From NCBI GenBank assembly GCA_033810155.1, contig JAPXKJ010000003.1:24639-88638 (forward strand): a DNA stretch of 64,000 nucleotides, given 5' to 3'. Below the pieces are notes generated by a model. That model was not told the origin of the DNA. It did not search any database and saw only the letters and a program-made list of their open reading frames with translations. Numbering within the stretch: the first letter of the stretch is position 1; every line of letters starts with the position of its first letter. The translations under genes and the position numbers were made by a program. This DNA comes from Bacillota bacterium. Its GTDB lineage: Bacteria; Bacillota; Sulfobacillia; Fermentithermobacillales; Fermentithermobacillaceae. Positions 1,950 through 59,497 of this stretch are shown here, piece after piece.

Positions 1950-2965
1950 GACTCCAATTCAAGCCCTGCGGAAGGGCTCAGGTACAGCCAATCTGCGATG
2001 TCACTGCCAGTGCAATGATACTTGAAGAAACCTGCAGCAGATATCATAGCCCCATTGTCTGTGCACAGTTCTATCGGCGGGATGTAGAGAGGAACCCCAA
2101 GCCTGTCGCATAGAAGATTAGCTTCTTTTCTCAACAACCTATTGGCTGCGACTCCACCTGAGATTGCAAAACTGTTTGCCCTCATATCTTTCATAATCTC
2201 ATCCACAGGATGAAGCAACTGCTCTACAACTGCTTTCCTGAAACTCGCGCATAGGTCTGGAATGACCTCTTCGCCTCTCCCTCTCGCCTCAAACTCCAAA
2301 ATAGCACGAGTCTTGATGCCGGAGAAACTATATGCGTGCTTCACTCCTTGGATTTTTGGCAGAGGAAAGAATATGCTTTCTGGATCTCCCATTTCGGCGA
2401 CTTCGTCCAAATGAGGCCCCCCAGGAAATGGCAATCCCAATTCTCGAGCGACTTTATCAAAAACTTCTCCTGCTGCGTCATCCAAGGTCTGCGAGATGAT
2501 ATCAAATTGTCCATGGTCTTTCATCAAGATAAGTTCTGAGTGACCACCTGAAACCACAAGGTTTAAAACTGGAAATGCGGGTTGATCTCCTCGCAGAAAA
2601 TTGGCATAGATGTGCCCTACCAGATGATGCACAGGCACAAGAGGAACGCCAAGCGTATAGGCTAAGGACTTTGCAAAGGATGTCCCCACCAGAAGTGCCC
2701 CTATTAGGCCAGGGCCGTGAGTTACTGACACCGCGTTAATATCCGAAAGTTCTATTCCCGCTTCGGCAAGGCACCGTTCCGTAACCGGTACCATCATCTC
2801 GATGTGGCGCCTTGAAGCTATTTCGGGAACAACGCCTCCGTATTTTGAATGAATATCTGTTTGCGAAGAAACCACGTTAGATAGTATCTTCGTTCCATTT
2901 TCGACCACGGCGCATGAAGTATCGTCGCAGGATGTGTCGATCCCAAGGATAAGCATTTCTATCAC
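1931..2965 (-). CDS. tsaD: tRNA N6-adenosine threonylcarbamoyltransferase TsaD (Kae1/Gcp)
   Basis: Full-length 344-aa ASKHA-fold protein with GIDTSCDDTS...HGPGLIG and HxxGH metal-site motifs. Confidence 0.9.
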   Translation of the reverse strand: MIEMLILGIDTSCDDTSCAVVENGTKILSNVVSSQTDIHSKYGGVVPEIASRRHIEMMVPVTERCLAEAGIELSDINAVSVTHGPGLIGALLVGTSFAKSLAYTLGVPLVPVHHLVGHIYANFLRGDQPAFPVLNLVVSGGHSELILMKDHGQFDIISQTLDDAAGEVFDKVARELGLPFPGGPHLDEVAEMGDPESIFFPLPKIQGVKHAYSFSGIKTRAILEFEARGRGEEVIPDLCASFRKAVVEQLLHPVDEIMKDMRANSFAISGGVAANRLLRKEANLLCDRLGVPLYIPPIELCTDNGAMISAAGFFKYHCTGSDIADWLYLSPSAGLELESWRESN

Positions 2966-3130
2966 CTCTTAGAAGTCTACAACAATTATACTGTGATCTG
3001 CAGGCTTTACCAGAACTTCGTCATGGCGCTAGGCTTATCTGGTATTGAAAGCTTGCGCTTGTATTGATAATCTTTTCTATGATCCCGAGATTGCAGCGCT
3101 AAATAGGTCGCATAAGGTGGGATACTAAAA

Positions 3131-4054
3131 ATGCATTTTGCAGATAGACTCCAGGACAGGATCGACAAAGTAGACTCCAGGATTGTAATCGGTATTGATC
3201 CTGATCCCAAACGCGTTTTTTCCCCCCAGTCAAGGCTCGAACAAGCCTTTGGGAATAAGTCTTCAGAATACGTTTTGGAGGCTTTCTGCCGCACCATAGT
3301 GGATGTAGCCAAAGACTACGCATGCGCCATAAAACCTCAGGCCGCCTTTTTCGAGTGTATGGGCATCATGGGTCTTACAGTTCTTTCACGAGTGATCGCT
3401 TATGCCCGTTCGTTTGACATACCAGTTATTCTTGACGCCAAAAGAGGCGATATTGGCAATACAGCCTCCGCTTACAGCGCTGCATATCTAGAGTCCGGAT
3501 CTGATTTCTTCGCGGATGCTCTGACCGTTAATCCTTTTCTTGGCCCCGACACGCTTGCCCCATTTGTCGAGACCGCAGACAAGAACAACTGCGGTTTGTT
3601 TGTGCTCGTAAAGACATCCAACCCGGGATCTTCGGCATTTCAAGACCTCAGTGTCTTAGATGCAGGCACCAGACAGGTTGCCACAGTATCTGAGATAATC
3701 GGTGCCGAAATCGCCAGCCTTGGAGACAAAAACCTAGGTACCTGCGGATTATCCAACATTGGAGCGGTAGTTGGCGCTACGCACCCCCAAAGTATGGTTC
3801 GTTTAAGACAGATCATGCCCCGAACAATCTTCCTTCTTCCTGGCTATGGAGCGCAAGGTGGCACAGCCGCAGATGTAAGACCAGCCTTTACTTCTGACGG
3901 GAAAGGTGCAATTGTGTCTTCATCACGGCAAATCATATTTGCCTACGAGAAACTGGAAAACTCACATCCCACGGCGGAACAAGTGACCCGCGCAATCGAG
4001 GACGCTGCTTTGAAAGCACGCGACGATATAAACTCGGTGATTTCGCTGATCTAG
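3131..4054 (+). CDS. pyrF: orotidine 5'-phosphate decarboxylase (long type 2)
   Basis: 307 aa with an IVIGIDPDP...DAKRGDIGNT core. Divergent from tsaD. Confidence 0.8.
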   Translation: MHFADRLQDRIDKVDSRIVIGIDPDPKRVFSPQSRLEQAFGNKSSEYVLEAFCRTIVDVAKDYACAIKPQAAFFECMGIMGLTVLSRVIAYARSFDIPVILDAKRGDIGNTASAYSAAYLESGSDFFADALTVNPFLGPDTLAPFVETADKNNCGLFVLVKTSNPGSSAFQDLSVLDAGTRQVATVSEIIGAEIASLGDKNLGTCGLSNIGAVVGATHPQSMVRLRQIMPRTIFLLPGYGAQGGTAADVRPAFTSDGKGAIVSSSRQIIFAYEKLENSHPTAEQVTRAIEDAALKARDDINSVISLI

Positions 4055-4067
4055 CCCTGTTTGCACT

Positions 4068-4568
4068 TTACACCATCCACTTTAACTGCTCTAACTGAGA
4101 GATTGACGGTCCAAGATCGTCCTTCCACATTATAAGGGCATCTTCATTGGTGTCAGTATAGTATCCTTTCCTGATTCCTCGTTCTACGAAACCCAGCTTT
4201 CTATATAGGTTTTGCGCCTGATGGTTAGAGACTCTAACTTCCAAAGTCATTTTAGAAGCACCAAGTTCTCTGGCTTTTTCAAACGCAAATCTTAGCATCT
4301 TTTCTCCTATTCCTTGGCGTCTCATCTTAGGGCTCACAGCTATGTTAGTTATGTGGGCTTCGTCTAATATAATCCACATGCCAAAGTACCCTACGATCTG
4401 GTCTTCGTACTCAGCTACGAAGTAATGGGCGTAGACGTTATCCCGAAGTTCTGATTCAAACGCTCTCCTGGACCATGGCGTCGGGTATGATTGACTCTCT
4501 ATGGCAAGAACCCCATCAAGGTCTTGAAGAGTCATCTCTCTTATTGCAACATTCAAAGAATCATTCAT
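4068..4568 (-). CDS. rimI: ribosomal-protein-alanine N-acetyltransferase (GNAT)
   Basis: 166-aa GNAT with a RRQGIGEKML acetyl-CoA motif, sitting between tsaB and tsaE, the conserved rimI position. Confidence 0.8.
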   Translation of the reverse strand: MNDSLNVAIREMTLQDLDGVLAIESQSYPTPWSRRAFESELRDNVYAHYFVAEYEDQIVGYFGMWIILDEAHITNIAVSPKMRRQGIGEKMLRFAFEKARELGASKMTLEVRVSNHQAQNLYRKLGFVERGIRKGYYTDTNEDALIMWKDDLGPSISQLEQLKWMV

Positions 4569-5350
4569 AACATTTCACCTTCGTCTATTCGTTCTGAAAA
4601 CAAAACTTCGGCTTGAGACCGCCTGTAATACTCTGGAGTAGCAAGTGAAGGATGAATTTCCAGACCTTGCTCAAACATCTCTCGCCCGATCAGCCCAACT
4701 ATTGCAGGCTTTGGCAATAACAGGTGTTCATCGACAGGACGTATGTCATAAGGTAACAGCCCTGAGGCCGAGATGGTGAAATCATGAGCCGCATCTCCCG
4801 TAATCCAAATAGGGCCATCGATTAACTCTTTGCTCAATTCTACACAAAACTCAGCATAGGTCCTCGGCCCAATCCTTATCTTTTCTTCATACACGCAATT
4901 AGACGGAAATGCGTGGTTATTTTCAAAAGGCACTTTTCTGCGTTCGAAGTAAGCGCACACCGTCTGACCTCTGGCTTTCCCTTGAACAATTGCTATCTTG
5001 TCATATGCCTTGCACTGTCTCAAGTACACTTCGAAAGTTGGCACCTTAACTACGCCCTTCCCAAGAGCCAGAGACATTCCTTGGACGCTCGCACAACCTA
5101 TTCTCAACCCAGTAAACGAACCAGGCCCATGTGATACCGCAAAACAGTCTATATCCTCCATGCTCAAATCGGCCATATTTAGGGCCTCTACAGATAGAGG
5201 CAGAAGCATAGCAGAATGTACTCTTGGTCTGGACGTAGTAACCTCAGAGAGCACGCCTTTTGAGTTAACCACAGATACCCCGAGCAAATCTGTGCTTGTT
5301 TCTACAGCAAGTATTGCGTTATTCATCCTCTTTGTTTCCTCTTTCAACAA
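4565..5350 (-). CDS. tsaB: tRNA threonylcarbamoyladenosine biosynthesis protein TsaB (YeaZ)
   Basis: Inactive Kae1 paralog with LAVETSTDLLGVSV...SHGPGSFTGLRIG. The start is uncertain (5350 or Met9 at 5326). Confidence 0.8.
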   Translation of the reverse strand: MLKEETKRMNNAILAVETSTDLLGVSVVNSKGVLSEVTTSRPRVHSAMLLPLSVEALNMADLSMEDIDCFAVSHGPGSFTGLRIGCASVQGMSLALGKGVVKVPTFEVYLRQCKAYDKIAIVQGKARGQTVCAYFERRKVPFENNHAFPSNCVYEEKIRIGPRTYAEFCVELSKELIDGPIWITGDAAHDFTISASGLLPYDIRPVDEHLLLPKPAIVGLIGREMFEQGLEIHPSLATPEYYRRSQAEVLFSERIDEGEML

Positions 5351-5846
5351 ATTCTTCTATTATCCGAGCCCATGACTCGTCTTCTGTAGCAATGTCAATG
5401 GTCCGATCATCCGTTATTAGAACAGACCCTTCGCTAAAGTGCCTGTCAGAGAAGCGTATACGAATTCTGAGGGTGACCTTTTCTAGTTCGCTGCTCAACC
5501 GGTCGGCCCATTCGATCACTACTACCGCCTCTGGGTCCAAATCCAAGAGAAGTCCCGATTCTTCGATCTCTTTCTCGTCCAAGCGATAGAAGTCAAAGTG
5601 ATGAAGATGGCATCTACCCTCATAGATCTTCTCCAATACGAAACTAGGGCTGTTCACAGGTTTACTAATGCCCAATCCTTGTGCAATTCCTTGGACCATA
5701 GTAGTCTTGCCAGCGCCTAACGGCCCCTCTAACAGGACTACCTCTCCACCTCTAAGGTGTTTTCCTATTAATTTCCCTAGTTCTCTAGTTTCTTCAGACG
5801 ATCGTGTTTTTACACTAAAGGATCTCTCGCTCAATAATCTCACCAT
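5319..5846 (-). CDS. tsaE: tRNA threonylcarbamoyladenosine biosynthesis ATPase TsaE (YjeE)
   Basis: Walker A GPLGAGKTT in a 175-aa protein, first gene of the tsaE-tsaB-rimI run. Confidence 0.85.
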   Translation of the reverse strand: MVRLLSERSFSVKTRSSEETRELGKLIGKHLRGGEVVLLEGPLGAGKTTMVQGIAQGLGISKPVNSPSFVLEKIYEGRCHLHHFDFYRLDEKEIEESGLLLDLDPEAVVVIEWADRLSSELEKVTLRIRIRFSDRHFSEGSVLITDDRTIDIATEDESWARIIEEFVERGNKEDE

Positions 5847-5865
5847 TTGTGTATTATAGTGCCTC

Positions 5866-6558
5866 TTAAGTACGTTGGTTGGCTAGTTCATCATATTTCA
5901 TTTTGAGACTCTTCATATCATCCAGCATAAGAGGTTTCTTGCCAGCCTCATCCCGCAAAACTGCCGCAGGATGAAATGTAACCAAATACATGATTCCATC
6001 TCTTTCAAACCACTTACCTCTATCTCTCGTAACTCTCAAACCCGGGTCTATGAGAGTTTGACAAGAAAGAGCCCCGAGAAGAACAATTATCCAAGGTTTA
6101 ATCAGGCGAATCTGGGCTGTGAGATTAGGAAGACACGCTTTGACTTCCTCATCAGTCGGCATCCTGTTTCCCGGCGGACGGCACTTGACTATATTCGTTA
6201 TGAAAACATCGCTTCTAGAGAACCCATAACCTTCCAGCATGGAGTCTAGAAGCTGCCCTGCCCGCCCGACAAAAGGCTTCCCTGTGTCGTCCTCTGTTTT
6301 CCCCGGTGCTTCTCCTATGAGCATTATACGTGCTTGGCGGTTGCCTTCACCAAACACCACACCTTTTGCTCCTTGTCTAAGCTGGCACTTTGTACACTGA
6401 AGTACGCGCTCTCTCAAAGCCCCCAAGTCGCCTATATTCGTAGGTTCCTTAGCAGGGGTTGGTTCAACTGCCGAAACTCGTTCCTCTAAGTCGCTGCTTT
6501 CAATCTTATCGGGATAGTCGAAAAGAGGACGTTGAAGCCACTCACTCTTTGTCGTCAA
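5866..6558 (-). CDS. uracil-DNA glycosylase, family 4 (Fe-S type)
   Basis: CTKCQL...GEAPG...HPAAVLR motifs typical of UdgA/family-4 UDG. Confidence 0.8.
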   Translation of the reverse strand: MTTKSEWLQRPLFDYPDKIESSDLEERVSAVEPTPAKEPTNIGDLGALRERVLQCTKCQLRQGAKGVVFGEGNRQARIMLIGEAPGKTEDDTGKPFVGRAGQLLDSMLEGYGFSRSDVFITNIVKCRPPGNRMPTDEEVKACLPNLTAQIRLIKPWIIVLLGALSCQTLIDPGLRVTRDRGKWFERDGIMYLVTFHPAAVLRDEAGKKPLMLDDMKSLKMKYDELANQRT

Positions 6559-7492
6559 CGCGATCCCCTTCTTCTCTATGACTCTGGCTTTCCAGGCTCC
6601 TTATTCTCTCTTCTATGATTTCAGGATATCTTCTGACCAGTTCTAAGTTATCACTTAGGTGCTTTAAATATAGTTCCCCGAATTCAGGACTAATATCTTG
6701 GAGTTTCTCATACATAGCCTTTCCGATTTGTACAGCTGATTCGCAGTCTGGCTGGCAAGGGAAGAAATCCTTTGTAAAGTAAGCAAATTTGTTCACTTCT
6801 TCGGGGCTCTCAGCATGTATTATCTGGTTGGCAGCCCTTACTTCGGGACTCAGAACTGCAGAACCTCTATCGAAGATATACCTATCTATGCAACAGGCAG
6901 GAAAGCTAAGTATGTCTCCGATCTTTCTCAAAAATGCAGGGTTGCTTTCTTCAGGGAACGCTCGCAGTGACACGGGCGCGGAGATATTTGGGTATCGCCA
7001 CGCTTCCCACCTTATATCTTTGCGCATGTCCTGCAACTCTTCCAATTCAACCGATACTGAATCATCCTTAAAAATATACACTTCTCGTATAGTCGGCCGA
7101 GATTCTAATATCCTTTTCTGAAGTCCCAGTCTATCGATCCAGTCCATATACAGGTTGTAGGAAACGGAACTCTCAACTACCTCTGTATAGAGTTCTCTCA
7201 AAAGTTCGGTCTTCATTCGAGCTTCTTTCACTTTGTCATCTCGTCCAAGTCTTCCTGCTTTCTTTTTAACGTAGTTGCTAAAAGACTCCCCGAGACTCTT
7301 CTTGCCTTCTATTTTGTTGCGAAATCGACTATCTATGGTAGCACCAAGAATGGCCGCATCTGGTAATTCAGCAGGTACTATGATCTGTGCAGCCTTACGC
7401 ACATCTAAGACAACGGGCAAGAAGTCGTCAAACTTGCATCCAAGAGGTATTGCAGATTCCTCCATAAACTCCTGCACAATTTGGTATTCCAT
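6542..7492 (-). CDS. conserved hypothetical protein with a Cys-rich motif
   Basis: 316-aa ORF containing PACCIDRY...FFPCQPDC, a possible metal site. No family was recognised by eye. Its stop overlaps the UDG start by 17 nt. Confidence 0.5.
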   Translation of the reverse strand: MEYQIVQEFMEESAIPLGCKFDDFLPVVLDVRKAAQIIVPAELPDAAILGATIDSRFRNKIEGKKSLGESFSNYVKKKAGRLGRDDKVKEARMKTELLRELYTEVVESSVSYNLYMDWIDRLGLQKRILESRPTIREVYIFKDDSVSVELEELQDMRKDIRWEAWRYPNISAPVSLRAFPEESNPAFLRKIGDILSFPACCIDRYIFDRGSAVLSPEVRAANQIIHAESPEEVNKFAYFTKDFFPCQPDCESAVQIGKAMYEKLQDISPEFGELYLKHLSDNLELVRRYPEIIEERIRSLESQSHREEGDRVDDKE

Positions 7493-7661: not shown

Positions 7662-7706
7662 TCACAATTTGAAAGGGACGATAGAGCCCTTTTTGCTCTG
7701 CCGTCC
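7662..7706 (-). terminator. putative rho-independent terminator after the 7764..8888 gene
   Basis: Minus-strand RNA has the hairpin GGGACGGCAGAGC-AAAAAGG-GCTCTATCGTCCC followed by UUUCAAAUU, about 55 nt past the stop at 7764. Confidence 0.45.
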
Positions 7707-7763
7707 CTTAGTTTATCAGCGCATTACTGTTCGCTTCTATCTTCTACATCCGCCAGAATAGCC

Positions 7764-8888
7764 TTAAGCTTCGATTATCTCAACGTTCGCCCTTGGAACA
7801 GTTACTATGGTTCCATCCTCCAGCTTAGCTTTGAGAATTCTGACTTTAGACTCAGACTCAATAACCTGAAGCTCAGGTGGCAATTCGACAACCTCAGCCA
7901 ACAGACCAAAGTAAGGCTCTCTAATAATCCTTATGGCCGTTCCGACAACCAACCCTTGAGCCAAATCCTCCTCAGCGGCCCCTGAGGAGCTTGTCTGATA
8001 TCCTGGGACTATTATCTCAGGTCGCATGACCCCCGCCCTAATCTGTGTAGCGCCATTGATGCAGGCCTTGAGGCCGCTGATTTTTTGGAGAAGAGAAAAA
8101 GTCCTATCTGCCATCCTCATTTGTCCGAAACCTTCGGTGATAATGACAGTAACAGGAACATCCTCGTGACCTGTAATGGCGACTCCAATATCGAATCCCA
8201 GATACTCAATTAAGTCATGGTCTACGATACCACCTACCACAATACCTCGAGCCCCTACCTCGCCCGCCTTTTTGATTGCATCTGCTGTCACGAGCGAGCC
8301 ACCGACCAACACTTTATCTGCATCGTCGCTTTTTATGTGGGAAGCTTCAAGTACATCGCTAGGAGACTCGACTGCCACCCGTACGACCCCATTCGTCTCG
8401 CCGCCTACACCGAAAATTCCCTGTATAAAGGCGCCTTCTGTGACAACAACTACGCCCTCTTTTGGCAACACTTCCTCGACCACGCCTTCGATATAGGCAT
8501 CGACCTCAACGGGAATCGGAGGTTCTCTGAGCGTTACCTGCCCGGTAACCTTCGAGATCATCTCTATTGTGCCCTCTACCGGCGACCTTGCCTCACGCTT
8601 GAAAAGGCCAAAGAAAGAACTATACTGGGCCAGGATCTCTCCTTGGTGAACGTAGTCGCCCTCTTTTTTTTGCATGTATTCCACAACGTCTTCAGCTTCT
8701 ACACCTAGAATATTGGCGATATTAACAGTCTGCGGATTGCCCGGGATACTGGTTCTCGCTACAACTGTGCTAGGCGAAACTTTCTGCCCCTTTTCAACCA
8801 AAACTTCGCCGAGGATAGGAAGGCGCCGGGTCTTTCTAATAACCGCCTTTTCCGTAACTTTTAGCCCTGGTGTATATGCGTGTGCCAT
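7764..8888 (-). CDS. uncharacterised partner protein of the ASKHA ATPase, copy 1; paralog of 11420..12778
   Basis: 374 aa. Its paralog shares the motifs GEVLVE (N-terminal, barrel-sandwich-like), GGS..T.DA..KA.EVGA.G.V.G, ITG.EDVP.TVI.TEGFG, NGATQIRAG and PRANVE. It starts 17 nt after the ATPase stop. Confidence 0.65.
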   Translation of the reverse strand: MAHAYTPGLKVTEKAVIRKTRRLPILGEVLVEKGQKVSPSTVVARTSIPGNPQTVNIANILGVEAEDVVEYMQKKEGDYVHQGEILAQYSSFFGLFKREARSPVEGTIEMISKVTGQVTLREPPIPVEVDAYIEGVVEEVLPKEGVVVVTEGAFIQGIFGVGGETNGVVRVAVESPSDVLEASHIKSDDADKVLVGGSLVTADAIKKAGEVGARGIVVGGIVDHDLIEYLGFDIGVAITGHEDVPVTVIITEGFGQMRMADRTFSLLQKISGLKACINGATQIRAGVMRPEIIVPGYQTSSSGAAEEDLAQGLVVGTAIRIIREPYFGLLAEVVELPPELQVIESESKVRILKAKLEDGTIVTVPRANVEIIEA

Positions 8889-8905
8889 TTACTCCTTCCT
8901 CCCCT

Positions 8906-10816
8906 CTATATGCCTTTGTCCGCATATTTCTTAAGTAGATCTGCCGGATACATATCCATAGCTATAAACCACTCTAACAGCTTCTGACTTCTCAAAGTCG
9001 GATCATCAGGAAGGGCGAGAGGACGTCCACGGCAGTCTATCACTACACCAACTACGCCACCGTTTACCTTGCTTTCAACAACACGCCCGTGCCCCTTACC
9101 TACATCAAACTGCCTTGTAGGATGAATAACCGCATCAACCGTGACGTTTTCTGGAATCTTTATGACTTTCATTGAACCGTAAGGAACAGATTCCTCGATA
9201 GTTTCACCATTATAGTCAATTGTTACTGTAACACATGGCTCCCCAAATTGTAGGTTGCCGCTAGGACCTATGGGAGCAATAGAGGTGCCTAGTTTCACCA
9301 GACAGTCCCTGTCGAAAACTTGCATCGCTGCTTTAGGATGAACGGAAGCAAGAATTCCTAGTTGCGGCATCATGAAAATGGAGTCAACTGCCAGCATGGT
9401 CTCAGCTTCTGGTTGGAACGCATCCAATAGCATCATTGCAGCTTGTGCACGCCTAGGTGCGTGAGAAAGCGTTCCTCCTGATCCAATCAACATGCCCAGA
9501 TCTGCCATGTCGATGTATGTGTCTCCTGAACCCGACTGCTCAAACGTATCGCCGATGGTCCTTTCCTTGTGAACACCCCTCAAGCCTACCGCAAGGCTCT
9601 TGTGGTGAACAAACGCAAGGCGAAGAGCCTCACGGGCAATTCCTTGCTCGAGTATGAGGTCGTCTAGAGTCTGTGGAATCGTAGTAGGACGGATCATTTT
9701 ATTCCTGATCCTATTTCTGAGATCTGCTTCATCGATGGAAAATGGGATCCATCTCGAAATATTAGCCATTCCGGCCTCAAGAAGCACGTTGCAAATCGAA
9801 TAACTCATCCCTAAGTTTGCCGATACGGTTCTATTGAAGAAATCTCCAAACACTGAAAACACGTCAGTAGTAGCTCCTCCGATATCGACGCCTATGACGC
9901 TCATGTCATACTCTTTGGCTGCTGTTTGCATGCAGTTACCCACAGCACCAGGAGTTGGCATTATAGGAACAGCTGTCCAGTTCATAAGCTTATTATATCC
10001 AGGTGCCTGTGCCATAACGTGTTCCATGAAAAGATTGTGGATAGCTTCCCTGGCAGGCCCAAGGACCTCTCTTTCCAAAACAGGTCTTAGGTTATCTACT
10101 ACCCTGAGATCTGTTTTTTCGCTAAGGATCTCTTCAATATGCTTTCTGGCATGTTTATTCCCGGCATAGATTATCGGTAACTTATACCCTATCCCAAGCC
10201 GTGGCTTGGGTTCGGCAGCAGAAATAAGCTCTGCAATCTCAACAACGTGTGTTATTGTACCTCCGTCGATCCCTCCGGAAAGAAGGATCATATCCGGTCT
10301 CAGATGCCGGATTCTTTGGATTTTCTCGTGAGGTTTTCTTCCATCGTCGACTGAAATAACATCCATTACTATTGCGCCTGCTCCAAGCGCGGCTCTCGCT
10401 GCCGATTCTGCGGTCATAGTCTTGACAACGCCAGCTACCATCATCTGCAATCCTCCGCCTGCAGAAGACGTTGACATGAAGATGTCGGCACCTGACCCAT
10501 CTGGTTGCCTAGGAGTAATAACTCCTGTGTCACTCAAAAAACGCCTGCCCGTGAGTTCCTCGATCTCTCTGATGGCGTTTCTCGCACCCATTGTAACATC
10601 TTCAAAAGGTGCCTCTACTGTGGTCGGTGCCTCTCCCCTTACAATAAGGCGATACTCGTCTTCAACCTTCTCGATGAGGATAGCTTTTGTTGTAGTCGAA
10701 CCGCAGTCGGTGGCCAGAACAGTATTGATCTCTGTATCTGGCGTGAACGCAGTTTTTTCTTCCTGCACGAACTCTTCCCCTCCCTCGCTGCCACATGTAG
10801 CGTAAATACCTAACAT
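8906..10816 (-). CDS. ASKHA-fold ATPase, GlmL/MutL-like (glutamate-mutase E2-type family) with a ~170-aa C-terminal extension, copy 1
   Basis: 636 aa. Phosphate-1 motif LATDCGSTTTKAILIE, phosphate-2 VGVDIGGATTDVFS and adenosine motif LIGSGGTLSHAP. The N-terminal DxGST.TK resembles the GlmL family. Confidence 0.65.
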   Translation of the reverse strand: MLGIYATCGSEGGEEFVQEEKTAFTPDTEINTVLATDCGSTTTKAILIEKVEDEYRLIVRGEAPTTVEAPFEDVTMGARNAIREIEELTGRRFLSDTGVITPRQPDGSGADIFMSTSSAGGGLQMMVAGVVKTMTAESAARAALGAGAIVMDVISVDDGRKPHEKIQRIRHLRPDMILLSGGIDGGTITHVVEIAELISAAEPKPRLGIGYKLPIIYAGNKHARKHIEEILSEKTDLRVVDNLRPVLEREVLGPAREAIHNLFMEHVMAQAPGYNKLMNWTAVPIMPTPGAVGNCMQTAAKEYDMSVIGVDIGGATTDVFSVFGDFFNRTVSANLGMSYSICNVLLEAGMANISRWIPFSIDEADLRNRIRNKMIRPTTIPQTLDDLILEQGIAREALRLAFVHHKSLAVGLRGVHKERTIGDTFEQSGSGDTYIDMADLGMLIGSGGTLSHAPRRAQAAMMLLDAFQPEAETMLAVDSIFMMPQLGILASVHPKAAMQVFDRDCLVKLGTSIAPIGPSGNLQFGEPCVTVTIDYNGETIEESVPYGSMKVIKIPENVTVDAVIHPTRQFDVGKGHGRVVESKVNGGVVGVVIDCRGRPLALPDDPTLRSQKLLEWFIAMDMYPADLLKKYADKGI

Positions 10817-10858
10817 ATAAACTACGACATCTGGTCTTTAAATCCTCTTAGTCTTCGA

Positions 10859-11281
10859 CTAATTTTCAATTGTTTCCTCTGGTTTGGATCCGCTACTCTT
10901 ATTGCTATCCATATTCAAGGCTTCATCTATCATGGAACCCTTCTTAGCTCTCCTTAATTGCTTTGATTTCTTCTTGCTTTCCTTTTCCGCTTTGCGTTCA
11001 GCTTCTTCCTCCATGGCTGCAAGTTCAAGGCGCTGAATCAAGAGTTCTACATTATCTCGCTGATCGAAAAAGTAGGCATAGTCTTCGAAAGTCTCAAAAA
11101 ACACGCCAACGATAGGCGCAAAAAAGTGCATGGCCTGTCCTCCAAAATAACTGAGGGGCTTGTTCATCTCGAGAAAGAAGATCGCAGGAACTGTCATTCC
11201 GAACTGCACAATCCGAGCCGCTATAGCTTCTATGATCTCATCCCGTCTAGCTTCGTCAATTGGCTCATGAAATTTCAGCAT
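10859..11281 (-). CDS. small hypothetical protein with a hydrophobic core and a Lys/Glu-rich tail
   Basis: 140-aa ORF between the two module copies. FFAPIVGVFF hydrophobic stretch, then EEEAERKAEKESKKKSKQLRRAKK. Confidence 0.5.
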   Translation of the reverse strand: MLKFHEPIDEARRDEIIEAIAARIVQFGMTVPAIFFLEMNKPLSYFGGQAMHFFAPIVGVFFETFEDYAYFFDQRDNVELLIQRLELAAMEEEAERKAEKESKKKSKQLRRAKKGSMIDEALNMDSNKSSGSKPEETIEN

Positions 11282-11419
11282 CTATGACACCTCCTCCTGG
11301 TTCCGGATAGCTTGTAACCCTCATATTGTACATCACTTTTGGCAAGTTGGCTAATCCAATGTGGCACCGCAATATAGTTGGGAGCTGGCCTAACAAGTAG
11401 GACTCTTTTTTGCGCCATC

Positions 11420-12778
11420 TTACAACATCTCTACATTTGCCCTTGGCACCACAACTTGTTCACCATTTGCAAGTAGTACTTTGACAACTGGCACTTTTGC
11501 TTCGGTCTCTATCATCACAGGCTCTTTTGTGATTTCAGCAATAGTCCCTACCGCACCAAAGTAAGGTTCGTTTACGATCCGTATTTGTGCACCTTGCCTC
11601 AGATCAATATCATACCGCACCGGCTTAGCTAATTCGCCTTCATAACCAAAGAACGAAACGATTATCTCGGGTCTTATGGCTCCCGCTCTGATCTGAGTTG
11701 CACCATTCATAGACGCCGTCATTCCCTCAAGAGCCGCTAGGGTTTCCCATACTTCCCTTCTCATGTCTAGATGCCCGAAGCCTTCCATGAGAATTACGGT
11801 TAGAGGTATATCTTCTTGGCCCGTGATGCCTATTCCGAGTTTTACGCCCAACGACTGAGTGAGATTGAAGTAGTTCGCCGTGCCTGTTACAACTCCTTTG
11901 GCTCCAACCTCTATAGCTTTTGAAAAAGCGTCATTCGTGGCAAAAGAGCCACCGATGATTATCTTGCCTTTGCAGTCATCGGTTATCATGTCAGCTTCTA
12001 GAACTTGGTCCGGTCCATTTGCAAGGACCATGATCTCACCATGAGTCTCACGACCAAGGCCAAAAATACCGTTAAGTTTGATCCCCGGGGTCTCAATGAC
12101 ACATCCACGCGTTTCCATTACTTCTGAAACACGTCCCTCTACATAAGCGTTGACTATGACTTCTCTGAAGGGACGCGAAATGGTGACTTTCCCGGTTTTG
12201 GTATCGATATCAGATATTATTCCGGATACAGGCGCAAGCGCTGTCTTCGTAAAGAAAGCCTGAGCCTCGCCCTTTTTTGCGATCATCTGACCTTTCTTTA
12301 CCTCTTGTCCCACTGTCCTCAGCATGTGTTGCGGTAATTCCTCGGGCTTACACTTTATCTCAAAGGCGACATCGAAGGTGACAGGAGGCTCCTCTTTGCC
12401 AAATTCCTCGCGTATAGTTACCCTTCCAGACCGGTCGGATATCGACTCTATAACGCCATCTGTAGGAGATTCCAGTTCTTTCCTACCATATAGCCCCTGC
12501 TCCGCCCTGGCAAAGACTTCTTTCGTCTTGACCGAATCGCCTATTCCTTTCAACATACTTTTGGAAAGCTGAGCCGGTTCGACTCCCAACAATCTAGCGG
12601 CAGGTATGACCCAGGGAATCCCAGGCTTCATAGCTATTTTGGCTACCGGTGTATCAGGTTTTACTATATCCCCCACTTCAACAAGCACTTCTCCTGGGAG
12701 AGGCAGCTTGCGAGTTTTTCTCACAAGTGCAATCTGGCTTTTAACATTAGTCGGCAAATCTGCTAAAAAGTCCGCCAC
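11420..12778 (-). CDS. uncharacterised partner protein of the ASKHA ATPase, copy 2
   Basis: Paralog of 7764..8888. Start reassigned to GTG at 12778 (AAGGAGGG 7 nt upstream), which aligns with the copy-1 N-terminus. The track's longer ORF to 12847 adds a basic N-terminal tail and a 100-nt overlap. Confidence 0.6.
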   Translation of the reverse strand: MADFLADLPTNVKSQIALVRKTRKLPLPGEVLVEVGDIVKPDTPVAKIAMKPGIPWVIPAARLLGVEPAQLSKSMLKGIGDSVKTKEVFARAEQGLYGRKELESPTDGVIESISDRSGRVTIREEFGKEEPPVTFDVAFEIKCKPEELPQHMLRTVGQEVKKGQMIAKKGEAQAFFTKTALAPVSGIISDIDTKTGKVTISRPFREVIVNAYVEGRVSEVMETRGCVIETPGIKLNGIFGLGRETHGEIMVLANGPDQVLEADMITDDCKGKIIIGGSFATNDAFSKAIEVGAKGVVTGTANYFNLTQSLGVKLGIGITGQEDIPLTVILMEGFGHLDMRREVWETLAALEGMTASMNGATQIRAGAIRPEIIVSFFGYEGELAKPVRYDIDLRQGAQIRIVNEPYFGAVGTIAEITKEPVMIETEAKVPVVKVLLANGEQVVVPRANVEML

Positions 12779-14678
12779 GCTTCTTCCCTCCTTTTCCACC
12801 TTCCGACCTCTTCGCCGGGTACTTTTCTTGCAGCTCACGAATTTCATCCATTGGGTACGCGTTCATACCTTGAATCCAAGATGTGAGCAAATTGATTCGT
12901 TCCACGTTATCTTCGGGCAACTCCAGAGGGCGTCCTCTACCATCTAGGATGACACCGACCAAACCGCCGTGGATCTCTTTCTCCAACGCCTTACCTTTTC
13001 CATCACCTACATCTATGTTCCCACCGTGAGGTTGTATCCTACAGACGGCAGTTTCGCCAACCCCTAACGGTATAACCTGGAGTTCTCCTCCTGTAACCTT
13101 GTGCTCTACTACAGTACCATCTTCCATGGTCATCTTAACCGTAGCTGCCACCTGGCCACGTTTGAACGATCCAACCGGGGCTATTACGGTCCCTAGTCTT
13201 ACAAGACAGTCTTTCTCGAAAACCTCGGCAGATACCTCAGGGTATACCGACGAAAGAACACCAAGATGAGGCATCATGAATATCGAGTCCACAGCTAGAT
13301 AGGTTACCCCTGAAGGCTCAAAAGCATCGATGAGCATCAAAGCAGCCTGTTGTCGTCTCGGAGCATGCGAAAGAGCTCCGCCTGAACCAACTAGCATATC
13401 AAGATGGAGCATGTCTATTATGTCGCGTCCGGTAGCCGATGCTACTTTGCCTCGACCCGTAACCTGAAGTCCCACCTCTTCTTTTTCTACCTTCTTGGCA
13501 AGACTCTTGTGGTGTTCAAAACTAAGGCGAAGCGCTTCCCTGGCAATAGCCTGTTCAACTATTAGGTGGTACATTGTTTGTGGAATTGTAGTAGGTCTTA
13601 TCATCTTATTTGCAACCCAGTCCGAGATGCGAGACTGGTCGACCTCGAAAGGTACCCATCGCAGAATGTTATCGAATCCTGCTTCTTCCAAAACGTTGCA
13701 AATAGAGTAGCTCATACCTAGGTTCGCAGATACCGTCCTGGTGAAAGTGTCCTCGAAGTGTGAAAACACGTCAGTAGTAGCGCCGCCAATGTCTACACCT
13801 ATGATATTCTCATTATTCCTTTCTGCAAGGAGCATAATAAGTTTACCCACTGCACCAGGAGTGGGCATAATCGTCGTATCAACCCATTCCATGAGAGTCC
13901 CGTACCCTGGAGCTTGAGCCATGACGTGATTCATGAAAATCTCATGAATTGCTTCCCTGGCAGGTCCCAAGTTTTCAATATCGTGCCGGGGCCTCAAATT
14001 GTCGACTATGTTCACGTCCATGTCCGCCCCGCATATTTCCATAACAAGGTCTTGGGCGTCTTTATTGCCTGCGTATATTAGTGGCAGTTTGTACGTCGCC
14101 CCAAACCTCGGCTGCGGGTTCGCTTGTTTTATAATCTCGGCAATTGACGCTATATAAGCAACTGAGCCGCCATCTACACCACCTGACATGAGGATAATGT
14201 CAGGCCGCAATTCTGTAATCCTGGTGATCTGCTCCGATTGTGATCTACCGTCATCTACCGAGATTACATCCAACACAACCGCACCTGCACCTAAGGCAGC
14301 ACGGTGAGCTGAACTGGCACTTATTGTCTTTACTAATCCTGCAACCATCATCTGCAATCCTCCACCCGCAGATGATGTCGAAACGTAGATATCTACCCCC
14401 TTGTCACCTTCCTTGGGCCGAATCAAATTGCCTGACTCATCTAGAATTGGCCTATCAATAAGCTCCTCGATGCGCCGAATTGATTTCTTGACCCCAATCA
14501 TGACATCTTCCCATGGTTCCTCAACTGTGGTCGGCATTTCTCCACGAGTTACCAATCGATATTCGTCGCCACGTTTCTCGATAAGTATGGCTTTAGTAGT
14601 GGTCGACCCAACGTCGGTGGCAAGGATAGACTCTACCGGTTTGTTATCAAGGCCTTCCTTTCGCTGGATTTCTTCCAT
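12747..14678 (-). CDS. ASKHA-fold ATPase, GlmL/MutL-like, copy 2
   Basis: 643-aa paralog of 8906..10816 with ILATDVGSTTTKAILIE, GVDIGGATTDVFS and LVGSGGALSHAP. Confidence 0.65.
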   Translation of the reverse strand: MEEIQRKEGLDNKPVESILATDVGSTTTKAILIEKRGDEYRLVTRGEMPTTVEEPWEDVMIGVKKSIRRIEELIDRPILDESGNLIRPKEGDKGVDIYVSTSSAGGGLQMMVAGLVKTISASSAHRAALGAGAVVLDVISVDDGRSQSEQITRITELRPDIILMSGGVDGGSVAYIASIAEIIKQANPQPRFGATYKLPLIYAGNKDAQDLVMEICGADMDVNIVDNLRPRHDIENLGPAREAIHEIFMNHVMAQAPGYGTLMEWVDTTIMPTPGAVGKLIMLLAERNNENIIGVDIGGATTDVFSHFEDTFTRTVSANLGMSYSICNVLEEAGFDNILRWVPFEVDQSRISDWVANKMIRPTTIPQTMYHLIVEQAIAREALRLSFEHHKSLAKKVEKEEVGLQVTGRGKVASATGRDIIDMLHLDMLVGSGGALSHAPRRQQAALMLIDAFEPSGVTYLAVDSIFMMPHLGVLSSVYPEVSAEVFEKDCLVRLGTVIAPVGSFKRGQVAATVKMTMEDGTVVEHKVTGGELQVIPLGVGETAVCRIQPHGGNIDVGDGKGKALEKEIHGGLVGVILDGRGRPLELPEDNVERINLLTSWIQGMNAYPMDEIRELQEKYPAKRSEGGKGGKKRGGLFSRFAD

Positions 14679-14774: not shown

Positions 14775-15617
14775 TCATTCTTTGGGTTTGATGTTGCGAA
14801 TTCGCTCAATTGCGGCCCGGATCCCTCCTCTTTCCTTCTTCTCTTTTTTGACAAGTTCGTCTTTCTCACTAAACGCCTGTTCAGGCATGGTGAGTTTCGA
14901 GGAAACTATTTCGAGCACCGTGTCTTTGTTTGAACCATCGGGGTAGTAATAGAGAAACATGCCCTGCTTCATTCGTCCCCTCACCGTCCGCGTATCGTGT
15001 GAAAGGAGCACACCGTCGTGGAATTGATAGTAAGTCAAGAACTTATCCCAAGAACGGATATCCCTTGCCAAAAAGGTCCTATACCCAACCGTTTGCTCTG
15101 TAATCACATATTTTACTGGGAACAAGTAAACGGCCAACCTGTTCAAAAGTATAAGTGTCATCACAGCCACGAAGAAAAACTGCGGAAACGCCCAGTAAGC
15201 AAGCCCTATACAACCTGCTACAGATGCTACCACTAGGGTGGAGACGCCCGGACGAAGCGGAAGGAGCCAAACCTTCCACGAGTATAATTCGACATCCTCT
15301 TTTTCTTGTTCGGCTGCTTGGGGGATGCTCTCTCCGGTAATCCCCTTACCTGCGTTGTTCTCAGATTCGCTTCTCGCTTCAGCATCGCCTTTTTTGGGCA
15401 GCGGACCTCTGAGATATGAAGGTCTGCTTGCATCAGGAGTCTGCTTGTCAGTGCCCTTCGACTCATCTTTTGCTTCCGTCATTGTAACCTCCCCAATGAA
15501 CACGTTTGTTGCCACTTGTATCATATGCCCTGGGCATTTCCTACCTGATTCTACGATCCTCGGGAATATCCTGCAACTTGATGATTGCGGTCCGCACAAT
15601 AGCCCAACCATGCTCAA
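14775..15617 (-). CDS. hypothetical membrane protein
   Basis: Two hydrophobic segments (WKVWLLPLRPGVSTLVVASVAGCIGLAYWAF, FFVAVMTLILLNRLAVYLF). ATGA start/stop overlap with the upstream DmpA-like gene. Confidence 0.5.
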   Translation of the reverse strand: MSMVGLLCGPQSSSCRIFPRIVESGRKCPGHMIQVATNVFIGEVTMTEAKDESKGTDKQTPDASRPSYLRGPLPKKGDAEARSESENNAGKGITGESIPQAAEQEKEDVELYSWKVWLLPLRPGVSTLVVASVAGCIGLAYWAFPQFFFVAVMTLILLNRLAVYLFPVKYVITEQTVGYRTFLARDIRSWDKFLTYYQFHDGVLLSHDTRTVRGRMKQGMFLYYYPDGSNKDTVLEIVSSKLTMPEQAFSEKDELVKKEKKERGGIRAAIERIRNIKPKE

Positions 15618-57631: not shown

Positions 57632-58273
57632 TCATGCATTCGCCATAAGCCTTGGAAACCGCCGATTAACCGCATCAAGAGTCGCCTTTACCACCGCTTC
57701 CCTTTCGTCATATGAAACAGGACAAGAACCCGTTAGGGTTAGTTCCCTGCCATCCTCAATAACACCAAGAACAACCAGAGCCGTTCGCAGAGATCTTGAC
57801 TCGTATACATTTACATCTCTAAGAGAAATATTAACACTTTCTTTCAAGAAATGACTAAGAGCGTTTACAGTAGCTTCTGCGCAAAACCAGTTCCATCTGG
57901 TCGCAGTGGCAATTCCTTCACTTTCTCCGAGAGAAACTACTCCACCCAAAGCAAGTCTTACTCTAGCAACAGCAGATGATCCGCTTGCCATGAGCTCTAT
58001 CCCGACCAGTTTCGGCCGAGCGACAAAAGCCAATTCTGTGTCGGTCATCTGAACGATCGAAATCTTACCTTTATCGATCTTTTCTCCGGATGCCGCCAAG
58101 ATGGCAGATTCTACATCGCGTATTACATATTTGGGCGAACGACCTGTTCGCGCCACGACATTAATTTCGTCGACATTGTTGTCCTCGCCAATGGAAACTC
58201 GACAATCCAACACGTCATTTATCTTCTTGATGATGTCCTCATAATCTTTGGCTGAATGATCCTTGATGCCCAT
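57632..58273 (-). CDS. hypothetical protein (213 aa)
   Basis: No family recognised. Co-directional with and 33 nt downstream of the 396-aa gene. Confidence 0.45.
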   Translation of the reverse strand: MGIKDHSAKDYEDIIKKINDVLDCRVSIGEDNNVDEINVVARTGRSPKYVIRDVESAILAASGEKIDKGKISIVQMTDTELAFVARPKLVGIELMASGSSAVARVRLALGGVVSLGESEGIATATRWNWFCAEATVNALSHFLKESVNISLRDVNVYESRSLRTALVVLGVIEDGRELTLTGSCPVSYDEREAVVKATLDAVNRRFPRLMANA

Positions 58274-58306: not shown

Positions 58307-59497
58307 TCACATATACGGGGCCATAATTGCAGTGTTATGACGATACCCTGAATCTTCTTTCTCCTTAGCAACCATCTCTGCCATAATCCACAGTCCCGCA
58401 GCCACCAGACTGTGCCCGCCAAGTATAACCGGGACAGGGCATTCAACCGCGCTCTTAGTAAAATCCCTTACCCACTCATCTTCAATCAATTGGTACTGGC
58501 CTAGATCTGAGTAGAACCTGTCCCAATCGGAAACTTGACCCTTAAGATGAGCAAAAATCACTCTTGTATCGATGAAGGCTAGATCGCAGACACGAGACAG
58601 ATACTCAAAAAACATCTTCGGGCCGACCTCATTTATCATAAAACCTAATAGAGATACAACTTCTCCTCTTTCTTCTCGACCCAATGCCTTCATACCTCTC
58701 TCCTCAGAAAACACACGCATTCTATGCACCATGTTGGAGTTTATATATTGTATGACCGCAGGCCCCACTCGTCCTATCACCGCTATCTCACGTGAATCTT
58801 GCCTAAGTATTCGTAAGGCATCATTTAGGTTCTGAGTAGGCCAATCGAGAGAACTTATGATCCTTGATGATCTCGGTCCACAGTTAGGATGCAGACCAAG
58901 TACCAGGATATCAGTTGGGGTATCTATATCGAAATTGACCCTACCCGAGTTAGGCACAAGAAGCCGCCGCATTCCAATGTCGCGAAGCAAATTGCCAAGG
59001 ACGTTGTCATTCTCAGGTAGTTCAACCTCATCGATTGCTCTTGCAGGAGTAAAGGCAACCAGGTCTGCGGACTGGACATTATTCATTATGACTGTATTTC
59101 GGCTCTGCTTGAGCGTAAGGGCAATCTGGTCAAACTCTTCCAAATACACAAGGGGGGCAGCTGTCCCCCCCATATACAACACGTTTTCTAATCGGTAATT
59201 GACGATTATCTCCCTTAATCTACGTCCAAAGTGGAACTTGCCATCATCTGGCTCCAAATCAACTATTGCGAACTCTGACGCTTCGCGCGCGAGGTCTTCG
59301 TAATTGGTTGCAAGTATGATTTCGTCAATTTCCGGTGCCAATGCCAGCTTAGACAGTGTATCTAGGGCAATCTCTTTCCGGATGTCTTTGATCTTTGCAT
59401 CTAGAGAAGTTTTCGGTTTACCACCTTCAAACATTACTGCGGTAACCTTAGGTTGTTCCAAGCTGGCTCCCCCGCTTAACATAGACAAGTTTCCCAA
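58307..59497 (-). CDS. hypothetical two-domain protein (396 aa)
   Basis: No motif I can assign. It starts 6 nt after the hpf stop, so it is probably co-transcribed. Confidence 0.45.
   Translation of the reverse strand: MGNLSMLSGGASLEQPKVTAVMFEGGKPKTSLDAKIKDIRKEIALDTLSKLALAPEIDEIILATNYEDLAREASEFAIVDLEPDDGKFHFGRRLREIIVNYRLENVLYMGGTAAPLVYLEEFDQIALTLKQSRNTVIMNNVQSADLVAFTPARAIDEVELPENDNVLGNLLRDIGMRRLLVPNSGRVNFDIDTPTDILVLGLHPNCGPRSSRIISSLDWPTQNLNDALRILRQDSREIAVIGRVGPAVIQYINSNMVHRMRVFSEERGMKALGREERGEVVSLLGFMINEVGPKMFFEYLSRVCDLAFIDTRVIFAHLKGQVSDWDRFYSDLGQYQLIEDEWVRDFTKSAVECPVPVILGGHSLVAAGLWIMAEMVAKEKEDSGYRHNTAIMAPYM

Follow-up and report, generated by a model that had tools for sequence, protein, structure and literature searches.

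Two tandem pairs of a GlmL-like ATPase and a dedicated partner protein in a Bacillota contig, a possible soluble core of a widespread membrane-associated system

Organization of the locus

We describe two paralogous gene pairs, each consisting of an ATPase of the ASKHA superfamily followed by an uncharacterized partner protein, in a 64-kb stretch of a Fermentithermobacillaceae (Bacillota) contig, JAPXKJ010000003.1 (hereafter the window; coordinates are counted from its first letter). The pairs lie head to tail among tightly packed open reading frames (ORFs) on the minus strand, between positions 7764 and 15482, in the transcription order TM235, ATP1, PAR1, S140, ATP2, PAR2. ATP1 (12747 to 14678) is a 643-residue ATPase, the divergent, Bacillota-only paralogue, in which a MutL/GlmL-like core (residues 18 to 491) is followed by a conserved C-terminal domain. 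Its partner, PAR1 (11420 to 12778), has two N-terminal barrel-sandwich domains, a swivelling domain, and a KOW-like domain behind a variable N-terminal tail. The longest PAR1 ORF runs from 11420 to 12847 (475 residues), and the start is most likely the GTG at 12778, which is preceded by a GGAGG site and gives a protein of 452 residues; this start lies within the end of ATP1, an overlap of 32 nucleotides. In the second pair, ATP2 (8906 to 10816) is an ASKHA ATPase of 636 residues, or 620 from the gene callers' start at 10768, and a gap of 17 nucleotides separates it from PAR2 (7764 to 8888), a 374-residue partner of the universal type with an AHAYTPGL tail, a barrel-sandwich hybrid, a swivelling beta/beta/alpha domain, and a KOW/SH3 domain. 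A reading of this DNA made from the sequence alone (the sequence-only reading) had placed two paralogous pairs here, and both the ORFs and the paralogy were confirmed. ATP1 and ATP2 share 55% identity over 628 residues, well past chance, and PAR1 and PAR2 share 41% over 323 residues (E = 2e-76), with the N-terminal domain doubled in PAR1.

The hairpin that had been noted after the last gene was likewise recovered, on the minus strand at 7673 to 7709 (-22 kcal/mol; z = -4.45; 0 of 200 shuffles equally stable), with UUUCAAAUU directly after it, the two together occupying 7664 to 7709. The hairpin and UUUCAAAUU probably form the end of the transcription unit, as judged from the sequence; a simple terminator scan missed the hairpin. 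An Rfam search of the whole window and six related loci returned no riboswitch and no other RNA clue.

The ATPases form a distinct subfamily

The proposed kinship of the ATPases with GlmL/MutL was upheld. Against the Pfam MutL model (PF13941; cut-off of 27 bits), ATP1 scored 413.8 bits (E = 1.1e-123) and ATP2 scored 420.6 bits (E = 9.9e-126), and the entire 450-position model was covered. These matches span residues 18 to 491 and 33 to 505, leaving C-terminal extensions of 152 and 131 residues; the extension previously reported is therefore present, although it is shorter by this measure than the ~170 residues attributed to it. It is conserved across phyla with the motif GGxVGxxxDxRGRPL, in ATPases of 600 to 645 residues, and is beta-rich and confidently predicted in a model of a natural ATPase-partner fusion.

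Scores against the curated NCBIfam models were of a different order. ATP1 and ATP2 reached 235 and 227 bits against GlmL (NF040745; cut-off of 475), 225 and 211 bits against Or-4 of the ornithine pathway (NF040744; cut-off of 600), and 179 and 159 bits against TIGR01319 (cut-off of 204), and a fusion protein, P0150, likewise fell below the NCBIfam cut-offs. Since these scores lie under the cut-offs, and far under that for GlmL, we regard the ATPases as a separate subfamily, new within a known superfamily, and not as GlmL proper. The Hydantoinase_A model (cut-off of 22.9 bits) gave marginal results, with 26.1 bits for ATP1, in which no single stretch passed alone, and 20.3 bits for ATP2.

The motifs DIGGATTD and GSGGxLSHAP are common to both paralogues, as the sequence-only reading had it, but the phosphate motif DCGSTTTKA, also credited to both, occurs only in ATP2, ATP1 having DVGSTTTKA. 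More broadly, the ASKHA motifs DxGSTTxK, SGGxDGG, DIGGATTD, and GSGGxLSHAP are invariant in all 27 of the 27 bacterial and archaeal sequences compared, both window paralogues included. Sequence searches of the PDB with a single ATPase and with an ATPase profile detected no solved structure; the structural matches include PilM and FtsA.

Public records give several of the long ATPases and fusions (P0299, P0307, P0312, P0324, P0327, and P0369) the names "glutamate mutase L," "methylaspartate mutase," or "GlmL-related ornithine degradation protein." The family members that were scored, namely, the window ATPases and P0150, do not reach the NCBIfam cut-offs, and all of these names are likely to be systematic misannotations. 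The first two labels wrongly imply, for thousands of metagenome-assembled genomes, a glutamate fermentation that depends on B12.

The partner is a three-domain protein without the hallmarks of a known enzyme

That each ATPase is paired with an uncharacterized protein also held, in that neither PAR1 nor PAR2 matched any Pfam or NCBIfam family above threshold; PAR1 gave a weak match to RnfC_N, a barrel-sandwich domain (E = 7e-6). An AlphaFold2 model of PAR2 built from 33 homologues (predicted local distance difference test [pLDDT] score of 86) resolves three domains. The first is a lipoyl-like barrel-sandwich hybrid that matches biotinyl domains and the N termini of NqrA and RnfC. The second, a swivelling beta/beta/alpha domain, has a fold like that of the phospho-His domains of phosphoenolpyruvate (PEP)-utilizing enzymes and of RraA-like proteins, and the C-terminal KOW/SH3 domain matches NusG, Spt5, and eL27. 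A Foldseek search of the partner model against the PDB found no global match (template modeling score of ≤0.15), only KOW domains, and a PDB profile search with the partner found only a weak match to the KOW domain of NusG.

Universally conserved residues among 165 diverse partners are R21, QGIFGxGGE164, TGxE242, TEGFG255, GxTQxRAGxxRP290, R320, N368, and E370. In the same set, no His, Cys, or Lys is conserved (no His or Lys column reaches 90%), and H241 is a Gln in PAR1. This excludes a relay by phospho-His on the swivelling domain and, for want of a modifiable Lys, also a role as a lipoyl or biotinyl carrier. The sequence-only reading had left room for the partner to be an enzyme; we found no sign of any known kind of enzyme in this barrel-sandwich/swivelling/KOW protein. 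The N-terminal tail AHAYTPGL is invariant in PAR2-type partners and is predicted to be disordered. It is kept behind a linker in ATPase-partner fusions and lost in PAR1-type partners.

Pairing, duplication, and distribution

All ORFs of the best 80 related loci were clustered, and 65 of these loci had enough upstream sequence to be informative about the ATPase. The ATPase gene lies immediately 5' of the partner gene in 40 of the 65. Natural head-to-tail ATPase-partner fusions of 990 to 1,005 residues form ~44 protein clusters in Marinimicrobia and Planctomycetota, and since the two proteins are fused into a single polypeptide in these phyla, ATPase and partner very probably act as one complex. 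Pairwise distances among ATPases and among their adjacent partners are correlated (r = 0.83), which is in part expected from shared phylogeny.

The ATP1 clade is monophyletic and long-branched and the PAR1 clade is also monophyletic; both are restricted to Bacillota and always paired. This pattern indicates that ATPase and partner were duplicated together in an ancestor of these Bacillota, in agreement with the duplication and divergence that the sequence-only reading proposed. Judging by the trees, ATP1/PAR1 is an old, Bacillota-only duplicate that subsequently diverged, and ATP2/PAR2 is orthologous to the form that all other phyla carry. In the course of divergence, the invariant N-terminal tail disappeared from the ATP1/PAR1 pair, which acquired a second barrel-sandwich domain.

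Rather than a clostridial oddity, the system is very widespread, archaea included. A word-indexed search returned more than 8,000 matches to the partner family, all labeled "hypothetical," and an exhaustive search returned 2,606 clusters at 50% identity. A scan of one genome per species gave more than 596 partner relatives, from the best 80 of which the following lineages were taken. The pair is present in more than 15 phyla. The closest relatives (76 to 78% identity) are Bacillota of "Candidatus Fermentithermobacillaceae"; other bacterial sources are WOR-3, Zixibacteria, Poribacteria, Eisenbacteria, Hydrothermota, Stahlbacteria, Ignavibacteria, Latescibacterota, Cloacimonadota, Fermentibacteria, Planctomycetota, and Armatimonadota, and archaeal sources are Bathyarchaeia, Korarchaeia-type, and other Thermoproteota. 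Partners from archaea and from bacteria outside Bacillota are 54 to 58% identical to PAR2, and ATPases over the same range of phyla, archaea included, are 55 to 65% identical to ATP2. Identities of this order between Bacillota, the Fibrobacterota-Chlorobiota-Bacteroidota and Planctomycetota-Verrucomicrobiota-Chlamydiota (FCB/PVC) phyla, and archaea are typical of core cellular machinery. A known anti-phage defense system was considered and rejected: PADLOC defense models matched none of nine cluster proteins, and tblastn searches of plasmid and phage collections found no record.

Two variants of the arrangement were also seen. One Bacillota contig encodes a third MutL-type ATPase of 572 residues, followed by a 395-residue gene product, ~10 kb downstream of both pairs (L088:19205-20972). 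In a group of WOR-3/Stahlbacteria loci (L017, L025, L026, L031, L047, L051, and L069), no ATPase lies within 10 kb of the partner, which is followed by a conserved, beta-rich protein of ~277 residues (cluster C18) without a Pfam match.

Conserved neighbors and genomic surroundings

The 140-residue ORF between the two pairs, S140 (10859 to 11281, minus strand), had been taken for a mere separator. Its homologues, however, lie directly 5' of the ATPase gene in 35 of the 80 loci, archaeal loci included (E = 1e-9 to 1e-56), and because of this conservation we rejected a chance or spacer ORF and regard S140 as a member of the cluster. The hydrophobic N-terminal half is conserved, with one weak hydrophobic segment by hydropathy, and the C-terminal tail is charged; S140 has no Pfam match. 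The first gene of the cluster, TM235 (14775 to 15482, minus strand), was overlooked in the sequence-only reading. This 235-residue gene call, the longest ORF of which extends to 15617, has homologues at the corresponding position ahead of S140 in 20 of the 80 loci, in several phyla. Hydropathy predicts a two-helix hydrophobic hairpin (residues 80 to 120) and a soluble C-terminal part, and neither Pfam nor NCBIfam gave a match to TM235.

In many loci, a fixed set of four genes encoding membrane proteins, DUF6754, C8, C11, and C10, stands before or after the S140-ATPase-partner block. DUF6754 and C8 were found in 21 of the 80 loci and C11 and C10 in 18, with this placement in Bacillota, Zixibacteria, Eisenbacteria, Fermentibacteria, and archaea, and independent annotated contigs from Marinimicrobia (with the fusion), Planctomycetota, and one other bacterium repeat the gene order. 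The DUF6754 protein matches PF20539 (E = 2e-113). Hydropathy favors from two to four or more membrane segments in these proteins and none in the ATPase, the partner, or D483 (see below). Comparisons by hhalign revealed no mutual homology among six accessory families, and the membrane and accessory proteins have no PDB relatives and no NCBIfam names. In sister Bacillota (L011, L012, and L016) the order is TM235-cassette-ATP1-PAR1-S140-ATP2-PAR2, and the window and its nearest relatives (L004, L005, and L008) have this order minus the cassette, which was found nowhere in the 64 kb. In two Zixibacteria loci (L020:11533-21122 and L028:11525-21122), the DUF6754-C8-C11-C10 cassette occurs three times in tandem after a single ATPase-partner pair.

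Downstream of the hairpin, D483 (6542 to 7492, minus strand) encodes a soluble 316-residue protein with four invariant Cys residues (PxCC ... FxPCxPxC) and a weak match to Pfam DUF483 (E = 1e-4, under the cut-off); a profile search of the PDB found no relative. D483 lies 3' of the module in Bacillota loci, a linkage that in Bacillota alone could be plain synteny with the tsaEBD block. Since in two archaeal loci (L023 and L068) it also stands beside the cassette, D483 may be an accessory component of the system.

Other genes were seen next to the system in particular lineages. A glycine-cleavage operon (gcvT, a gcvH-sized gap, and gcvPA/PB) lies immediately 5' of TM235-S140-ATPase-partner in loci of the Eisenbacteria type, Fermentibacteraceae, and Hydrothermales (L057, L059, L062, L063, L066, and L067; ~2800 to 7300) and is divergently oriented in a Planctomycetota locus (L085:5853-8836); this adjacency may be synteny only. 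At a fusion locus of the Marinimicrobia type (L084:375-9159), the lipid genes plsX, a diacylglycerol-kinase-like gene, and cdsA are found just 5' of the system.

The absence of a B12-binding or mutase subunit, on which the sequence-only reading had remarked, extends beyond the window. A Pfam scan of window ORFs of at least 150 residues, a length that leaves GlmS-sized ORFs of <150 residues outside the scan, identified no B12-binding or mutase family. No B12 enzyme is present in the annotated related loci (L001 and L084 to L089), and no mutase-like family recurs among the neighbors in the 80 clustered loci. In total, ~85 related loci lack an adjacent B12 mutase; routine adjacency to such an enzyme, which would have made the ATPase an ordinary reactivase, was thus not observed. 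The neighbors in the window are housekeeping genes for tRNA modification and nucleotide metabolism (TsaB/D/E, RimI, UDG, and orotidine monophosphate [OMP] decarboxylase), together with S58 and C26 peptidases, a pyridoxal phosphate-dependent enzyme, the DNA repair and regulatory proteins UvrABC, CdaA, and WhiA, the secretion and translation factors SecA and RF2, and flagellar genes for motility. Elsewhere on the minus strand, a radical-SAM protein with a PDZ domain (591 to 1949) adjoins tsaD in all related Bacillota loci, and two adjacent ORFs of 213 and 396 residues (57632 to 58273 and 58307 to 59497), both without a Pfam match, are flanked by an HD-domain signaling protein and a ribosome hibernation factor.

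Possible function and alternative explanations

A distinct, long, GlmL-like ATPase and a three-domain partner co-evolve and are co-inherited within a conserved cluster rich in membrane proteins. Our preferred reading, for which we consider the case evenly balanced, is that the two pairs are copies of the soluble core of an ATP-driven system that is widespread and membrane-associated, and that they do not encode a B12 reactivase. The finding is real and not an artifact, and the earlier picture of an activase plus an enzyme with a missing client is only partly supported by it. The missing client is more likely to be membrane-bound than a soluble enzyme, given that the pair adjoins the DUF6754 cassette in most phyla, if not in the window. 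More tentatively, the ATPase-partner pair, S140, TM235, and DUF6754-C8-C11-C10 could together constitute an ancient, unrecognized, ATP-powered membrane machine, driven by an ASKHA protein rather than by a P-loop or ABC protein, common to many bacterial phyla, Bathyarchaeia, and Korarchaeia-type archaea, and conserved almost as strongly as housekeeping functions; we lean slightly against accepting this fuller version as it stands.

In such a system, the pair would act as motor and adaptor on the cytoplasmic side, and binding and hydrolysis of ATP in the ASKHA cleft would drive a conformational cycle, as in Hsp70, FtsA/PilM, and the B12 reactivases. Domain closure of the ASKHA protein might then be relayed through the mobile domain of the partner and its charged, glycine-rich surface, for which the invariant acidic and basic cluster E164, E242, E252, T281, Q282, R284, and R289 is the candidate. 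The cycle would act on the components embedded in the membrane and serve assembly, maintenance, or transport there. The disordered, invariant AHAYTPGL tail may dock on the ATPase, by analogy with the PilN peptide on PilM.

Several observations weigh against a membrane-associated system of this kind. In 22 of the 65 informative loci (Poribacteria, WOR-3, and Armatimonadota), the partner stands without an ATPase within 10 kb, and the model of the fusion protein is only moderately confident (pLDDT of 71.5). Neither the pairs in the window nor those in its closest relatives (L004, L005, L007, and L008) have the DUF6754 cassette nearby, so the soluble core may work without it. Our literature search found no paper or experiment bearing on the function of the system or of its Pfam families. 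Finally, adjacency to membrane genes fits an enzyme with its transporter equally well.

The last point leads to the strongest of the alternatives, which we nevertheless consider unlikely: a soluble, two-subunit, ATP-dependent metabolic enzyme like hydantoinase/oxoprolinase or acetone carboxylase. The ASKHA subunit would activate a small substrate with ATP, the partner would carry a second active site (E164, E242, E252, R284, and R289), and the membrane genes would encode the transporter. GlmL/MutL does belong to the hydantoinase branch, and the marginal Hydantoinase_A match of ATP1 points the same way, but ATP2 scores under the cut-off, and there is no Hydantoinase_B-like subunit, the partner having no Pfam match at all. 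The invariant polar, glycine-rich motifs of the partner resemble a ligand site, and metal-dependent aldolases and decarboxylases occur among RraA-like and swivelling folds; however, identities of 55 to 70% across bacterial phyla and archaea are unusually high for a peripheral catabolic enzyme. Similarly, while the tandem triplication of the cassette in Zixibacteria recalls the paralogy of transporters, S140 and TM235 are not typical transporter parts, and the window neighbors are housekeeping genes and not a catabolic operon.

An actin-like cytomotive or scaffolding system, in which the ASKHA protein polymerizes into filaments that the partner and the small membrane proteins anchor at the membrane, would account for the membrane-protein neighbors and for the very high conservation across phyla that is typical of polymer-forming proteins, but the sequences place the family with GlmL and the hydantoinases and not with actins, and we consider it improbable. 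Least probable of all is an ordinary GlmL-type reactivase or chaperone acting in trans on a B12-dependent mutase or other radical enzyme encoded elsewhere in the genome: it would fit the Pfam MutL match, and a swivelling domain is found in reactivase alpha subunits, but scores that fall well short of the equivalog cut-offs for GlmL and Or-4 and also below that of TIGR01319, recurrent neighbors that are membrane proteins and not mutases, and a C-terminal domain and dedicated partner that the ~460-residue GlmL does not have all speak against it.

Should the proposal of an ASKHA-driven membrane machine prove true, it would represent a new class of energy-coupling device and would account for a sizeable set of genes of uncultured lineages that are now called "hypothetical." Despite the conservation of the system, none of its components has been assigned a function or a curated name, and none has a solved structure. 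The system is now delimited to four to eight genes, with natural fusions, a set of invariant residues, and a paralogous pair that can be used as a specificity control.

Comparison with known systems

MutL/GlmL has been described as a chaperone for the reactivation of glutamate mutase (PMC4682846), the one relevant line that our literature search yielded; we found no paper mentioning the system or the Pfam families involved. The window ATPases share with GlmL/MutL (PF13941; NF040745 and TIGR01319) and with Or-4 (NF040744) a homologous ASKHA core of ~470 residues, including the phosphate-1, phosphate-2, and adenosine motifs, yet they reach only about half of the equivalog cut-offs. In contrast to GlmL, a single module, they add a conserved C-terminal domain of 130 to 150 residues and have a dedicated partner of the 374-residue type, fused to the ATPase in some relatives. 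Their genes lie beside those of membrane proteins and, in the loci examined, never beside glmS/glmE, oraSE, or kamDE. Of four features by which a GlmL may be recognized, the family thus has the Pfam match and lacks the other three, namely, the curated score, the genomic context, and the size and architecture.

Among other reactivases, no sequence similarity to DdrAB/PduGH or EutA was detected in the PDB, with a profile included, and in contrast to those systems there is no DdrB-like subunit here and no diol, glycerol, or ethanolamine enzyme nearby. HyuA/HyuB does not fit either, with Hydantoinase_A scores that are marginal or below the cut-off and partners that have no Hydantoinase_B. The partner shares the swivelling fold with RraA-like proteins and with PEP-utilizing enzymes (Enzyme I, PEP synthase, and rifampin phosphotransferase), but unlike the latter it has no conserved catalytic His and no ATP-grasp or PEP-binding domain. 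With BCCP and the N termini of NqrA and RnfC it shares the barrel-sandwich hybrid, but not a conserved Lys for lipoylation or biotinylation, and it differs from NqrA and RnfC in being soluble and cytoplasmic and in having no redox-cofactor motifs. Given that the ATPases fail three of the four defining features of GlmL, that the partner lacks the defining residues of its look-alikes, and that no paper was found, we rate the system as lying outside every described kind. PilM-PilN and FtsA, in which an ASKHA protein at the membrane binds a short conserved peptide of its partner, have no sequence relationship to it and serve as an analogy only; the likeness to PilM-PilN may nonetheless extend to the partner, which here too has an invariant N-terminal peptide predicted to be disordered.

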